Assembly (NCBI GenBank): GCA_016779935.1
Contig: JADHMQ010000001.1
Span: 128,369 to 192,368 of the forward strand
DNA length: 64,000 nucleotides
From: Flavobacteriales bacterium
GTDB taxonomy: Bacteria; Bacteroidota; Bacteroidia; Flavobacteriales; UBA7312
Direction of reading: 5' to 3'
Under the pieces are notes generated by a model. That model was not told where the DNA came from. It did not search any database and saw only the letters and a list, made by a program, of their open reading frames with translations. The position numbers and the translations under genes were made by a program. Shown here piece after piece: positions 25,599-28,027 of this stretch (its first letter is position 1; each line of letters begins with the position of its first letter).

Positions 25599-26963
25599 AT
25601 GAGTTTAGTGAAGAAATACAATGTAGCAGGACCAAGATATACTAGCTATCCTACAGTACCCTATTGGGATACTGAAAAATTTAGAGTGAAGGCTTGGAAA
25701 AAGAGCCTTATAAAGTCAATTGACGAAAGTAATGAAGAACAAGGAATCAGTTTATACATTCACCTACCATTCTGTGAGCAGATGTGTACATTTTGCGGAT
25801 GTCATAAGCACATAACCCAGCGGCACGATGATGTAGAAACACCTTATATACATGCTTTATTGAAAGAGTGGAAAATTTATCTTTCTTTTTTTAAGGAAAC
25901 GCCCCAATTAAAAGAATTACATATCGGCGGTGGTACTCCAACATTCTTTGCTCCAGAACGATTATCTTTTTTTATTGATCAATTGCTATCTACTGTACGA
26001 ATTGCCGACAAACCTTCTTTTAGTATTGAAGGACATCCTAACAACACCTCTTATGAACACATGGAGGTATTGTACAATAGGGGCTTTAAACGTATTAGTT
26101 TTGGCGTTCAAGACTACGATGAATATGTTCAGCAAAAGATTAATAGAGTACAATCCTTTGAAGAAGTGAAATCAGTAACAGATGATGCTCGAAAAATTGG
26201 TTATACATCAATATGTCATGATTTAGTATATGGCTTGCCATTTCAAAATTTAGATGGCTTTACAGATAGTATTAAAAAGACCATACTGCTAAAACCCGAT
26301 AGAATAGCCTTGTACAGTTATGCTCATGTACCTTGGATAAAAGGTTTAGGACAACGTGGTTTTTCTGAAGAGGATCTTCCTTCACCAAAGGAAAAATTAA
26401 TGATGTCTGAGAAAGCAAAAGAAATGTTATTAGAAATTGGCTACCATTCCATAGGCATGGATCATTACGCTCAAGAAACAGATTCTCTTTATAAATCGTA
26501 TCAATCAAACAGCATTCATAGAAACTTTATGGGTTATAATTCCTCCAAAACTCAGCTCATGATTGGTCTTGGAGTGTCGTCAATAATTGATTCGTGGTAT
26601 TCTTTTGCCCAAAACACTAAAAATTTAAATGAATATTATTCTTTAATTACCAAAGGAGAAATACCCGTAGTTAAAGGTCATCACCTCAGTCCTGAAGATT
26701 TAATTAGGCGTAAACACATACTAAACCTCATGTGTCAGTTTGAAACTTCTTGGAGCCATAAGGGTTCGTTTTCATCAATAATTAACGAAATTATTGTAAA
26801 ATTAGATGAAATGCGTAAAGATGGTCTAATAAAATTAACTAACAATTCTATTCATATTACTGCTAAAGGAAGACCTTTTGTTAGAAATGTATGTATGGCA
26901 TTTGACTATTATCTCAATCAATTTTATAAGAAGAACGATAAGATTTTTTCAAAGACGATTTAA
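25599..26963 (+). CDS. hemN: Oxygen-independent coproporphyrinogen III oxidase (radical SAM)
   Basis: 'YIHLPFCEQMCTFCGC' CxxxCxxC radical-SAM motif. It is 454 aa with a HemN-like N-terminus 'KYNVAGPRYTSYPT'. Confidence 0.9.
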   Translation: MSLVKKYNVAGPRYTSYPTVPYWDTEKFRVKAWKKSLIKSIDESNEEQGISLYIHLPFCEQMCTFCGCHKHITQRHDDVETPYIHALLKEWKIYLSFFKETPQLKELHIGGGTPTFFAPERLSFFIDQLLSTVRIADKPSFSIEGHPNNTSYEHMEVLYNRGFKRISFGVQDYDEYVQQKINRVQSFEEVKSVTDDARKIGYTSICHDLVYGLPFQNLDGFTDSIKKTILLKPDRIALYSYAHVPWIKGLGQRGFSEEDLPSPKEKLMMSEKAKEMLLEIGYHSIGMDHYAQETDSLYKSYQSNSIHRNFMGYNSSKTQLMIGLGVSSIIDSWYSFAQNTKNLNEYYSLITKGEIPVVKGHHLSPEDLIRRKHILNLMCQFETSWSHKGSFSSIINEIIVKLDEMRKDGLIKLTNNSIHITAKGRPFVRNVCMAFDYYLNQFYKKNDKIFSKTI

Positions 26964-26979
26964 TTTTTTTATTTAAATT

Positions 26980-27009
26980 TTGATAAAATAGTTTTAGGTT
27001 ATATATTTA
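26980..27009 (+). promoter_or_regulatory. Bacteroidota-type promoter (TTG-N19-TATATTTA) directly upstream of the structured RNA
   Basis: TTG at 26980-26982, a 19-nt spacer, then TATATTTA at 27002-27009. That box matches 7 of 8 positions of TAnnTTTG. Confidence 0.45.
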
Positions 27010-27012
27010 CGT

Positions 27013-27143
27013 CGTCTAAACACAATTCCAACCAATTATTATTTAAAATTCTTAACCTGACTACCCATACAGGGGGGTGGGTTAAGAGCCATATTTGGTT
27101 GTTATTTAGTGTTTAGACGCATTAAGCCCCCCTATTTTTTTTT
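27013..27143 (+). ncRNA. Candidate structured RNA (long three-helix hairpin, G6/C6 tertiary or terminator pairing, U9 tract). It could be an sRNA (6S-like shape) or a cis-regulatory leader.
   Basis: P1 is 27013-27023/27109-27119 (11 perfect bp). P2 is 27029-27035/27095-27101 (7 bp). P3 is 27049-27057/27080-27088 (8 Watson-Crick pairs and one G-U). The apical loop contains GGGGGG (27072-27077), which is complementary to CCCCCC (27127-27132) just before T9 (27135-27143). Confidence 0.45.
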
Positions 27144-27151
27144 CGGATTTG

Positions 27152-27331
27152 ATGAAATTAAAAAGAATAAGAGGAAAGTGCAAATGCGGGGATTCTAGAG
27201 TCATTATCAAAGAAAAACATTTAGATAGAATTAGATTTTTCTATGAAAGAGAATGGCATTCTATACTACTTCTATGCAGGCGTTGCAATTCTAAAATTCA
27301 TGATAACTTTCAACAGATTAAAAACGATTAA
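27152..27331 (+). CDS. Hypothetical small Cys-pair (CxC...CxxC) protein
   Basis: A 59-aa ORF with 'CKCGDS' and 'CRRCNS' pairs and no family I recognise. It may not be expressed. Confidence 0.3.
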   Translation: MKLKRIRGKCKCGDSRVIIKEKHLDRIRFFYEREWHSILLLCRRCNSKIHDNFQQIKND

Positions 27332-27360
27332 ATACCGTAGATTTGTGAAAAATTAGATGT

Positions 27361-27570
27361 ATGGAAACTAAAGATTGCAATGGTAATGTTTTAAAAAATG
27401 GCGATGTCGTAATTGTTAACAAAACTCTTGATGTTAAAGGCTCACCTATTGTGATAAAGAAAGGCACAAAAGTCAAAAACATTCGACTTACTGATGACCC
27501 TAAGGAAGTAGACTGCAAAGTAAACGGTACACGTTTAGTTCTAAAGACCATGTTTTTAAAGCGAAACTAA
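27361..27570 (+). CDS. PhnA/YjdM C-terminal-domain protein (short form)
   Basis: 'KDCNGNVLKNGDVVIVNKTLDVKGS...IKKGTKVKNIRL....EVDCKV.G....LKT.FLK' closely parallels the C-terminal half of E. coli YjdM. Confidence 0.8.
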   Translation: METKDCNGNVLKNGDVVIVNKTLDVKGSPIVIKKGTKVKNIRLTDDPKEVDCKVNGTRLVLKTMFLKRN

Positions 27571-27571
27571 C

Positions 27572-28027
27572 TTACCTCTTTATGCTTTCTTCATAGACTT
27601 TTATCCATTCTTCGGGAGTAATTTTTGTGCACAATTCCGTAACGAGACTGTATGGAATATCGTCTATGTATTTGAATCGAATACAGCTTTTTCCAATATC
27701 TAATTTTCGCTTACACTGTTGAGCAAATTCTTTCTCCCACCATTTTAATAAAGTATTGTCGGCATAGATACCCATATGGTATAAAGCAATAAAGTTTTTT
27801 TGTGAAGCTAAGCTCATAAAAGGCAATGGGAGATGTGGTGTAGTGTGGTAACCGCTAGGGTATAGGCTGTGAGGAACAACCCAGCTTGGCATACCATAAC
27901 CTAAGCATTCCTCAAAACCTTTGGGTAAATTGGCATTAATGATAGCCCTTAATTTATTCATACTTTCTTGCCGTTCAAAAGGTATATTTTTGAAATAATC
28001 ATTGACAGAATTGGCCTCAATTTTCAT
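27572..28027 (-). CDS. DUF1801 domain protein (YdhG-like)
   Basis: 'VNDYF.NIP..RQE.M.KLR..I...LP.GFEE...YGMP' pattern and small size. Confidence 0.65.
   Translation of the reverse strand: MKIEANSVNDYFKNIPFERQESMNKLRAIINANLPKGFEECLGYGMPSWVVPHSLYPSGYHTTPHLPLPFMSLASQKNFIALYHMGIYADNTLLKWWEKEFAQQCKRKLDIGKSCIRFKYIDDIPYSLVTELCTKITPEEWIKVYEESIKR

Follow-up and report, generated by a model that had tools for sequence, protein, structure and literature searches.

A small open reading frame (ORF) in the 64-kb window analysed here (the whole stretch of flavobacterial DNA, 64,000 nucleotides in length) is preceded by an RNA element that we propose, with moderate confidence, to be a structured and pseudoknotted 5ʹ leader that has its own promoter and controls the translation of a small four-cysteine protein. 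The component parts of this candidate leader are listed below in window coordinates, and all reside on the forward (+) strand.

26980-27009, +: promoter-like region, made up of a -33-type TTG (26980-82), an N19 spacer and the -7 box TATATTTA (27002-09); the implied (predicted) start at about 27013-27016 coincides with the first bases of P1
27013-27023, +: P1 5ʹ arm, cgtctaaacac, which pairs with gtgtttagacg at 27109-19 (11 perfect bp)
27029-27035, +: P2 5ʹ arm, caaccaa, which pairs with 27095-101 (from the sequence and RNAfold)
27049-27058, +: P3 5ʹ arm, ttcttaacc (27049-57) and, opposite G27079, U27058; the partner strand is at 27079-88
27059-27071, +: 5ʹ half of the apical loop, with a conserved CC(C) whose pairing with the 5ʹ Gs of the G-run would extend P3
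27072-27081, +: G-run, GGGGGG (27072-77) followed by U27078 and GGG; G27075, G27076 and G27077 form the core of the pseudoknot 5ʹ strand (from covariation with the C-run)
27079-27090, +: P3 3ʹ arm and two unpaired Cs, GGGTTAAGAGCC
27095-27101, +: P2 3ʹ arm, ttggttg
27109-27121, +: P1 3ʹ arm, gtgtttagacg, and an unpaired CA that does not vary; an A-rich linker (27122-26) comes next
27127-27132, +: C-run, CCCCCC; C27130, C27131 and C27132 form the core of the pseudoknot 3ʹ strand
27133-27151, +: U-rich, lineage-specific spacer between the C-run and the start codon, with T9 at 27135-43
27152-27331, +: small ORF (59 aa), the constant downstream partner of the RNA

All coordinates given for these parts in the initial annotation of the locus proved correct when the sequence was read again, and the long, irregular hairpin that it described is both real and conserved. 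RNAfold recovers P1, P2 and P3 and assigns the element a minimum free energy of -41.7 kcal/mol, as compared with -24.0 +/- 3.5 kcal/mol for 200 dinucleotide shuffles, none of which (0/200) folded as well (z = -4.99). The same rod is recovered independently for every lineage examined. Nine base pairs, one of them G-U, constitute P3 (27049-57 with 27080-88), and the 22-nt apical loop contains the GGGGGG sequence. An extension of P3 into this loop is predicted in all lineages by RNAfold and RNAalifold, and its pairs are poorly conserved.

Within one marine Flavobacteriales family, searches with a covariance model located the element in 5 of the 21 species genomes, with one copy per genome; across 400 genomes of the order there was no other match. 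BLAST likewise finds a single copy in the 1.68-Mb genome from which the window derives, and thus the element is not one of the dispersed repeats that the initial annotation had named as a possible source of error. With metagenome-assembled genomes (MAGs) and metagenome contigs included, there are about 20 distinct copies in total, all from a clade of uncultured marine Flavobacteriales with streamlined genomes of 1.3-2.1 Mb. The position of the element is syntenic across two genera (g1 and its sister genus g2). The small ORF is intact in exactly the five RNA-bearing genomes of the family, and one further genome (G003) retains a truncated remnant. Moreover, the RNA is present upstream of every protein-anchored small-ORF locus that has enough upstream DNA. 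The two therefore co-occur 1:1, with the RNA always directly upstream and never associated with another gene, and in deletion remnants the RNA and the 5ʹ half of the ORF have been lost together. The element had been described as lying between hemN and a pair formed by the small ORF and a phnA-like gene, and only the small ORF has proven to be a constant neighbour. Neither hemN nor phnA-C is considered to be a partner of the element, because most carriers have either no hemN or a decayed one and phnA-C is present without the element; the PhnA-C of genus g4 also occurs without the small ORF.

The rod is conserved to an unusual degree. Its structured positions (n = 70) are ~96% identical among 17 distinct copies, while synonymous sites are near saturation: third-codon positions of the flanking phnA and nqrF genes, when compared at identical residues, are only 43-77% identical among lineages and 45-57% identical between the two genera. 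Overall, nqrF DNA is 80-92% identical among the lineages that carry the element. The RNA is also far more conserved than its own ORF, for which amino-acid identity is 29-66%. Among the 17 distinct block sequences, the 9-bp core of P1 (GTCTAAACA/TGTTTAGAC) is identical in all but one (L070, which carries one U-to-C mismatch), and the terminal P1 pairs vary or break. Changes in P2 are exclusively one-sided (U-G or mismatches). The 3ʹ arm of P3 is invariant, and its 5ʹ arm carries G-U wobbles and a few mismatches. In L066 and L072, the internal loop between P1 and P2 is complementary (TATTTA/TAAATA), and the rod is thereby extended. The 12-mer GGGTTAAGAGCC is unchanged in all 24 copies that include this region except L093, which has a 5-nt deletion here. 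Of these copies, the eight from metagenomes were retrieved with this block as the search anchor, as was L073; the block is equally unchanged in the 15 copies retrieved via the protein or a five-sequence model. The sequence GACGCA is invariant as well, and the linker that follows it is always A-rich and 5-6 nt in length.

Compensatory changes were found in none of the 27 base pairs of the rod helices. Pairs were counted on gap-free blocks placed at fixed offsets from invariant anchors because MAFFT puts the C-run and the 3ʹ arm of P2 out of register from one lineage to another, and this structure-anchored block alignment carries a bias towards structure. Support for the proposed rod helices comes from complementarity and conservation; in related genomes the three helices predicted by the initial annotation are retained and the pseudoknot covaries, whereas P1 to P3 do not. 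Riboswitch stems normally covary. The invariance of both arms, which is unusual for riboswitches, could reflect some other kind of function.

Covariation is confined to the pseudoknot, where two of the three core pairs exhibit double-sided changes. The pair equivalent to G27076/C27131 occurs as G:C and as A:U in L005 versus L069, two sequences that differ at only three of ~280 aligned positions, two of these differences being a G-to-A change in the G-run and a C-to-U change in the C-run. At the pair equivalent to G27077/C27130, most copies have G:C; L061 and L090 carry U-G instead, and L091 and L092 carry U:A. In all there are three double-sided cells, every one in the pseudoknot, a number that 6 of 500 shuffles reach; the covariation derives from three lineage events in ~20 copies. 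None of 500 shuffles exceeded the covariation score, which falls when the register is slid. In L057, as compared with the near-identical L073, a U and one C are both missing, a difference to be viewed with caution given that homopolymer lengths are error-prone.

The initial annotation had offered two uses for the complementarity between the G-run and the C-run, namely a loop-to-tail pseudoknot or an alternative terminator helix that disrupts P3 and P1. The first is upheld by genuine covariation in the register 27075-77 with 27130-32. The second is not tenable, since in the six lineages tested the rod is more stable than a nested G-run:C-run helix by 14.5-23 kcal/mol, and the pairing would therefore be a pseudoknot formed on the rod. 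We thus regard the two runs as the likely strands of a long-range, loop-to-tail helix that is supported by covariation. Two further bases, C27127-28, can also pair with G27080 and G27079 by spanning a U27078-C27129 mismatch.

Several features point to transcription that begins at the foot of the hairpin. The promoter-like region is the best sigma-70-like match (10/12) over the 2.3 kb scanned. The Bacteroidota promoter consensus is TTTG/TAnnTTTG (PMC6847099), and a -7 box of the form TAnnTT(T), with the core TA(T/t)(A/T)TT, resides a constant 5-6 nt upstream of P1 across all lineages. Genus g2 does not retain the -33 TTG, and its -7 box lies downstream of an nqrF terminator hairpin. The fixed spacing and this location agree with the Bacteroidota-type promoter originally proposed, and the transcript very likely starts at P1, as judged from the sequence. 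The + strand was chosen because of the promoter, the orientation of the ORF and the U-G pair in the pseudoknot; counts of G-U versus C-A events in the rod (4 versus 3) leave the strand undecided. The 3ʹ boundary has fared less well. An RNA of ~130 nt that extends from promoter to U-tract is not a conserved definition because the U-tract is absent in the sister genus and no terminator was detected. Specifically, a U-run (U6-U9) follows the pseudoknot in genus g1 copies only, genus g2 instead carries CUUACUAUA... with ATG ~18 nt past the C-run, and a terminator scan called no canonical terminator at the U-tract. The distance from the C-run to the start codon is 18-25 nt in nearly all lineages and ~45 nt in L003 and L071, which have an insertion.

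The associated protein is 59-65 aa in length and basic (pI about 10), with the cysteine pattern C-x-C ... C-x2-C. Substitutions in the ORF are distributed 30/25/58 over the three codon positions, which indicates that it is conserved as a protein, and its AF2 model has a pLDDT of 89.7. One of the four cysteines has been lost in L061 (C10Y) and in L066 and L072 (C45S), all of which keep the RNA; the latter two also use a GTG start codon. No match to the protein was obtained in searches of Pfam, NCBIfam, PHROGs, PADLOC, PDB sequences or PDB folds. An exhaustive profile search of 1.84 billion representatives returned only this clade, two deletion chimeras (P0007 and P0009), P0008, P0010 and P0011, and a single-protein query found no related loci in genome contigs. 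P0008 and P0010, which are eukaryote-type repeat proteins, were judged to be spurious. P0011 is a singleton remote homolog without detected relatives, on a contig with only 61 nt of upstream sequence. Two candidate identities were considered and rejected. An HNH endonuclease is disfavoured by a sub-threshold HNH_5 score (15.5 bits versus a cut-off of 27.5) and by the absence of a conserved histidine in a 12-sequence alignment. An N-terminal zinc ribbon split off from YjdM/PhnA is disfavoured by hhalign (probability 0.3% against the 113-aa YjdM of the relative G008) and by the PhnA-C of genus g4, which has no accompanying small ORF. As far as these searches extend, the small-protein family is previously undescribed and unannotated.

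The RNA likewise finds no established family. None of the 4227 models of Rfam 15 produced a gathering-level match in the whole 64-kb window, and therefore the membership that the initial annotation had suggested checking, including that of 6S-Flavo, was not obtained. At E <= 10, four sub-threshold matches fall within 26900-27400, none of which lies over the rod. A weak match to PK-repZ (RF01087) spans the C-run and start-codon hairpin at 27128-27174 (19.7 bits versus a gathering score of 44; E = 0.05). In IncI-alpha repZ, a pseudoknot between a loop and a sequence upstream of the ribosome-binding site activates translation. The element resembles this system only below the gathering score, and it lacks both the plasmid context and the leader peptide.

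If the element is a translational leader, the RNA made from its own promoter would begin at the foot of P1 and fold into a bent rod composed of P1, P2 and P3. The 3ʹ part of the G-run would pair with the C-run, which sits 8-9 nt past P1 and ~18-25 nt ahead of the start codon, while P3 would fold back beside P1/P2 at the large asymmetric bubble. Because the pseudoknot needs P3 to be folded back, the RNA would adopt a compact tertiary fold rather than a simple hairpin. The C-run could either be held in the pseudoknot or be freed for pairing with G-rich codons early in the ORF, and the initiation region would open or close as a result. A hairpin that places the start codon within or next to its loop is predicted for every lineage from the C-run together with the pyrimidines that follow it. 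The stem sequences of these hairpins differ between lineages, those of genus g2 share just one C with the pseudoknot, and all are thermodynamically unexceptional (z from +0.1 to -3.6 with mononucleotide shuffles). Translation in Bacteroidota does not depend on Shine-Dalgarno (SD) sequences, and secondary structure around the start codon tunes it (PMC6847099). On these sequence grounds, the pseudoknot probably controls translation.

A first guess regarding the trigger is feedback: the encoded basic, zinc-ribbon-like protein may bind the leader much as S15 binds the rpsO pseudoknot, a guess prompted by the exclusive association of the RNA with this one gene. The Escherichia coli rpsO mRNA carries an autoregulatory, pseudoknotted leader that is bound by S15. 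As in that leader, the element is gene-specific, its hairpin loop pairs with a segment that adjoins the initiation region, and it occurs only before a gene for a small, basic protein of the nucleic-acid-binding type. However, the element is much larger (a three-helix rod of ~110 nt plus a pseudoknot that spans the whole rod), and the protein that would bind it is not ribosomal and belongs to no known family.

Nearly as likely a trigger is a small molecule or ion, which would make the element an orphan riboswitch. The element lies in the predicted 5ʹ untranslated region next to the initiation region, with the -7 box before P1 and 1:1 linkage to the ORF. A riboswitch-like or other cis-regulatory reading is viable, and to this extent the regulatory logic first suggested for the locus stands; its attenuator variant does not, as discussed below. 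In SAM-II, preQ1-II/III, guanidine-III and fluoride riboswitches, a loop also forms a pseudoknot with a 3ʹ tail just upstream of the start region, and pseudoknot-type translational riboswitches share with the element an A-rich linker before the 3ʹ pseudoknot strand and strongly conserved unpaired nucleotides. Judged strictly as a riboswitch, the element offers a conserved core and a pseudoknot, together with rod stems in which no pair (0/27) covaries, one associated gene and no family match. In contrast to pseudoknot-type riboswitches, its stems lack covariation and it is associated with a single gene family, which precludes inference of a ligand; moreover, Bacteroidota lack an SD sequence to sequester. 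A more tentative proposal is that the element represents a new class of RNA with a compact tertiary fold, either an orphan riboswitch that senses a ligand or metal or one member of a dedicated RNA-protein pair, the other being the four-cysteine protein. The invariance of all three helices would then reflect tertiary or protein contacts rather than simple pairing.

We consider it rather unlikely that the element is a stand-alone or dual-function small RNA (sRNA) of ~120 nt, such as a ribonucleoprotein partner, a ribozyme-like RNA or a trans-acting RNA, with the ORF merely co-transcribed or located downstream. Extreme conservation of both strands of all three helices would suit an RNA with molecular partners of its own, as would the intact RNA of L066 and L072, whose protein has lost a cysteine and starts with GTG; in genus g1, the U6-U9 run after the C-run would release a discrete sRNA. 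However, genus g2 has no such U-run and its start codon follows directly, no canonical terminator was detected, no copy of the RNA occurs apart from the ORF, and the 3ʹ strand of the pseudoknot (the C-run) is immediately adjacent to the translation initiation region.

Far less probable, and largely refuted, is a transcription attenuator or a terminator for the hemN 3ʹ untranslated region, in which a G-run:C-run helix followed by T9 would compete with the rod. In the window, T9 does follow the C-run and hemN has no other recognisable terminator, but the nested helix is disfavoured in all six lineages tested by the energies given above, and the U-tract is neither conserved nor called as a terminator. 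Furthermore, most carriers lack hemN, and the element there follows a separate nqrF terminator and promoter box.

A DNA-level function, such as an attC-like recombination or binding site, a REP/MITE sequence or a long operator palindrome, is highly improbable. Both arms are invariant in sequence, the neighbouring hemN is variably present, and the P1 arms GTCTAAAC/GTTTAGAC resemble the Rʺ/Rʹ sequences RYYYAAC/GTTRRRY of integron attC sites, which are likewise imperfect hairpins with R-like and L-like boxes set apart by an unpaired spacer and with a variable terminal structure. However, the P1 arms carry one extra A:T relative to this consensus, the element is single-copy at a fixed syntenic position across the two genera, and hemN is not on the side where an attC insertion would place it. 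No integron integrase was found, the best TIGR02249 match scoring 73.5 bits versus a cut-off of 265, and XerC/D-like matches to this model occur at the level of generic recombinases in all 14 control genomes. There are also no phage or plasmid matches to the element. The G-run:C-run pair covaries outside the palindrome, and its U-G state (L061/L090; U:A in L091/L092) is compatible with pairing only in RNA of the + strand. Least probable of all is the 6S-type RNA, an RNA-polymerase-sequestering rod with a central bubble, to which the initial annotation likened the element: the element shares with 6S-Flavo (RF01685) a length of ~110 nt, a rod shape with an internal bubble and an occurrence in Flavobacteriia, but no 6S-Flavo match occurs at the element even at E <= 10, the sole 6S-Flavo-like match of the genome lies elsewhere (G000:C20:4552-4681; 34.9 bits versus a cut-off of 85), and, unlike 6S, which is a housekeeping RNA, the element is patchily distributed (5 of 21 family genomes) and physically joined to the initiation region of an ORF.

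The wider impact of the proposed translational leader is limited by its narrow distribution (one family and one gene) and by scarce functional clues. Even so, it adds a well-defined structured RNA that is matched by no Rfam family, together with an unannotated small-protein family, both from abundant, uncultured marine Flavobacteriales. Its signature is unusual in that the RNA exceeds the neighbouring coding DNA in conservation and combines non-covarying stems with a clearly covarying, long-range pseudoknot beside a start codon. To our knowledge, few leader-based translational controls are known in Bacteroidota. Because these bacteria translate without SD pairing and few such leaders have been described, a defined example would be a useful model.

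All coordinates of the initial annotation proved correct when positions 26700-27700 were read again, and the element (27013-27132, + strand) and its surroundings are laid out as follows.

26961-26963, hemN stop codon
26980-26982, TTG, followed by 19 nt and then TATATTTA at 27002-27009; promoter-like
27013-27023/27109-27119, + strand, helix P1, 11 perfect bp
27029-27035/27095-27101, + strand, helix P2, 7 bp
27049-27057/27080-27088, + strand, helix P3, 9 bp including one G-U
27072-27077, + strand, GGGGGG (the G-run) within the 22-nt apical loop
27127-27132, + strand, CCCCCC (the C-run)
27135-27143, + strand, T9
27152-27331, + strand, small ORF of 59 aa

RNAfold returns exactly the P1-P2-P3 hairpin (the rod) at a minimum free energy of -41.7 kcal/mol, compared with -24.0 +/- 3.5 kcal/mol for dinucleotide shuffles of the element (z = -5.0). 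The opposite strand gives a weaker fold (z = -3.6).

Using BLAST and a covariance model made from the first five copies, we located the element in five of the 21 species genomes of the family, across the window's genus (g1) and its sister genus (g2), and the model found it nowhere outside those five among 400 genomes sampled from the order. A translated search recovered the small ORF intact in exactly these five genomes, and as a truncated remnant in the fragmentary genome G003. The neighbouring hemN gene, by which the element had been framed, is intact in the window (25599-26963), is reduced to a 207-aa remnant with an internal deletion in the relative G002 (L002 1681-2304), and is absent from g2 and from one genome of g1 (G004), where the order is nqrF, its terminator hairpin, a promoter box, the element and the small ORF. 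Moreover, a further genus (g4) carries a PhnA C-domain gene with DUF1801 and apbE, without element or small ORF. Only the small ORF, then, accompanies the element throughout; hemN and phnA do not.

Additional copies came from contigs encoding members of the small-protein family, from one metagenome scan with two invariant blocks as anchors, and from one scan of species genomes, which together bring the total to some 20 distinct copies, from roughly five lineages. The RNA is present at every protein-anchored locus with sufficient upstream DNA. In three remnants, deletions have taken out the RNA along with part of the ORF, or have joined the ORF to a neighbour: at locus L062 the hemN N-terminus runs into the C-terminal half of the small ORF; G003 (contig C54, L047) has lost the RNA and the 5' half of the ORF; and the 65-aa metagenomic protein P0009 is a chimera of small-protein residues 1-26 and the PhnA C-domain, a deletion product of the locus. 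The PhnA/YjdM gene of the window (27361-27570) encodes only the C-terminal domain (69 aa); the N-terminal zinc ribbon that usually precedes it is missing. The same short form is kept with DUF1801 and apbE in g1, g2 and g4, and the relative G008 has a full-length YjdM (113 aa) at a different locus. In g2, the interval between the small ORF and phnA-C contains a 74-aa ORF, convergent to the small ORF and with two hydrophobic helices predicted (L004 1055-1279, L005 1061-1285, L058 452-676); no Pfam match is recorded for it, and the window lacks it.

Third-codon positions of phnA and nqrF (identical residues) are 43-77% identical between lineages, approaching saturation for an AT-rich genome, and 45-57% identical between the two genera; nqrF DNA overall is 80-92% identical between lineages. 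Across 17 distinct copies, identity is 96% over the 70 positions that make up P1, P2, P3, the G-run and the C-run, and no copy with an intact region departs from the 12-mer GGGTTAAGAGCC or the block GACGCA. The metagenome copy at locus L093 (about 380-400) carries a 5-nt deletion within this 12-mer, at the junction of the G-run and the P3 3' arm (GGGGGGGTAAGAGCC), and its ORF is lengthened to 83 aa by the gene caller; either the copy is broken or the assembly is wrong here. Compensatory changes on both sides occur in none of the 27 rod pairs, where one-sided wobbles or mismatches are all that is seen, and the closest to covariation in the rod is the P1-P2 internal loop of L066 and L072, which has turned complementary (TATTTA/TAAATA). 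Support for the rod therefore consists of complementarity, stability and conservation, and its sequence is held base by base, beyond the needs of pairing alone.

Genuine covariation is found in the predicted pairing of G-run and C-run. Loci L005 and L069 differ at three of about 280 aligned positions, and two of these differences are a G-to-A change at the second G before UGGG and a C-to-U change at the second-last C. The pair between the last G before UGGG and the third-last C is mostly G:C; L061 and L090, the latter from an independent sample, have U-G there, and L091 and L092 have U:A. In L057 both the C-facing U and one C are missing relative to its near-identical neighbour L073, a difference that carries little weight because homopolymer lengths are error-prone. 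A single register fits all changes (G27075:C27132, G27076:C27131 and G27077:C27130, continued through a U27078-C27129 mismatch to G27079:C27128). Counted on anchored blocks (an earlier count used a smaller set), three cells show both-sided changes, all in this helix, and 6 of 500 shuffles reach three; the covariation score of the helix is exceeded by none of 500 shuffles and equalled by no slid register. In the L061 clade, P2 and P3 of the RNA carry mismatches and the pseudoknot pair is still complementary. If the helix is imposed in nested form, the rod is broken, at a cost of 14.5-23 kcal/mol in all six lineages tested, and the helix must therefore form atop the rod, as the loop-to-tail pseudoknot that had been proposed. 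Only 8-9 nt link P1 to the C-run, and the asymmetric bubble has 13-20 nt on one side and 3-6 nt on the other. P3 would thus fold back along P1/P2 at this large bubble, apparently the only way for the apical loop to reach the C-run, and such a geometry would imply a compact tertiary fold.

Every lineage has a TA(T)(A/T)TT box 5-6 nt 5' of P1, a fixed spacing that favours the suggested independent promoter. The box is the best sigma-70-like match in the region scanned and agrees at its first six positions with the Bacteroidota -7 consensus, TAnnTTTG (PMC6847099); the -33 TTG is not conserved in g2. The T-run 3' of the C-run (T5-T9) occurs in g1 only, the C-run of g2 being followed by CUUACUAUA and by an ATG about 18 nt downstream of it, and no canonical terminator was called at the U-run. 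What is conserved is therefore a promoter followed by the rod, the C-run and the start codon, and we read this unit as a predicted 5' leader. A stand-alone or dual-function sRNA would accord with the extreme conservation and with the U-run of g1; however, the g2 architecture speaks against a discrete RNA as the conserved product, and we consider this unlikely.

An attC-like site is suggested by P1 arms that resemble R''/R' boxes, but the element is single-copy and syntenic, no integron integrase or mobile-element matches were found, and the helix with covariation falls beyond the palindrome and has a U-G state that can pair only as + strand RNA; we reject this reading. The attenuator with an alternative terminator helix is likewise rejected, given the cost of the nested form, the lack of a terminator call and the restriction of the U-run to g1. 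Rfam 15 gave no family at its gathering score over the whole window, and a permissive scan (E <= 10, 26900-27400) gave only four matches, all sub-threshold, the best of which (PK-repZ, 19.7 bits vs 44) spans the C-run and start-codon region, outside the rod. The proposed 6S kinship also fails, since a whole-genome 6S-Flavo search found no match at the element, itself confined to five of 21 family genomes. The only match in the genome (G000:C20:4552-4681, L063; 34.9 bits, E = 0.001, cut-off 85) is on another contig and might represent this lineage's 6S RNA in diverged form. A dispersed repeat is dismissed because the element occurs once in its genome (1.68 Mb, 99% complete). The element is best read as a structured 5' leader without any Rfam match.

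The small ORF behaves as a real protein, judging from substitutions at codon positions 1/2/3 of 30/25/58. Among 5.8 billion proteins its family forms seven clusters, whose members all derive from MAGs or metagenomes of marine Flavobacteriales. Searching 1.84 billion representatives exhaustively with a profile yielded little more: two chimeras produced by deletion, eukaryote-type repeat proteins judged spurious, and one remote homolog, the 58-aa singleton P0011 (L088 1-238). P0011 adjoins a convergent methyltransferase, and TTCTTAAC, the same 8-mer as in the P3 5' arm, lies about 30 nt 5' of its ATG; the contig stops 61 nt upstream of the ORF, too short to judge RNA presence. Relatives are 29-66% identical to the window's protein, with a pI of 9-10, invariant R5, G8, C12, R28, Y31, L39, C42 and F53, and nearly invariant C10, K20, E34, S37, C45 and K48. 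One Cys is lost in two lineages (C45S in L066/L072, C10Y in L061/L090; ORFs at L066 2248-2436, - strand, and L061 1501-1698). The AlphaFold model is confident and mostly beta (pLDDT 89.7); Foldseek found no significant PDB neighbour (best E-value 3.8), and the model suggests a weak likeness to zinc-binding domains such as the NrdR ribbon. Searches of Pfam, NCBIfam, PHROGs and PADLOC gave no match, and the YjdM zinc ribbon was rejected as unrelated on comparison. One database names a family member 'RpoP', a label that we regard as a generic zinc-ribbon assignment.

In every lineage, the C-run and the pyrimidines 3' of it are able to pair with purine-rich codons just inside the ORF, whose start codon varies (ATG, TTG or GTG). 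The hairpin is CUUACUA(U)/(A)UAGUAAG with AUG in the loop in g2 and L065, CCCCUUACUUUUUU/GAAAGAGUAAGAGG in the G002 type, and uses a different partner, arising from an insertion, in the L003 type. That pseudoknot and start hairpin might compete is a reasonable hypothesis and not a result, because the hairpins are thermodynamically unexceptional (z +0.1 to -3.6) and those of g2 overlap the pseudoknot by one C only. Initiation in Bacteroidota is independent of SD sequences and tuned by structure near the start (PMC6847099), and structure-based control of small-ORF translation is therefore plausible. The initial observation is confirmed overall: in one marine Flavobacteriales family, a long-range pseudoknot, predicted from sequence comparison, adjoins the start codon of a gene for a novel small four-Cys protein.
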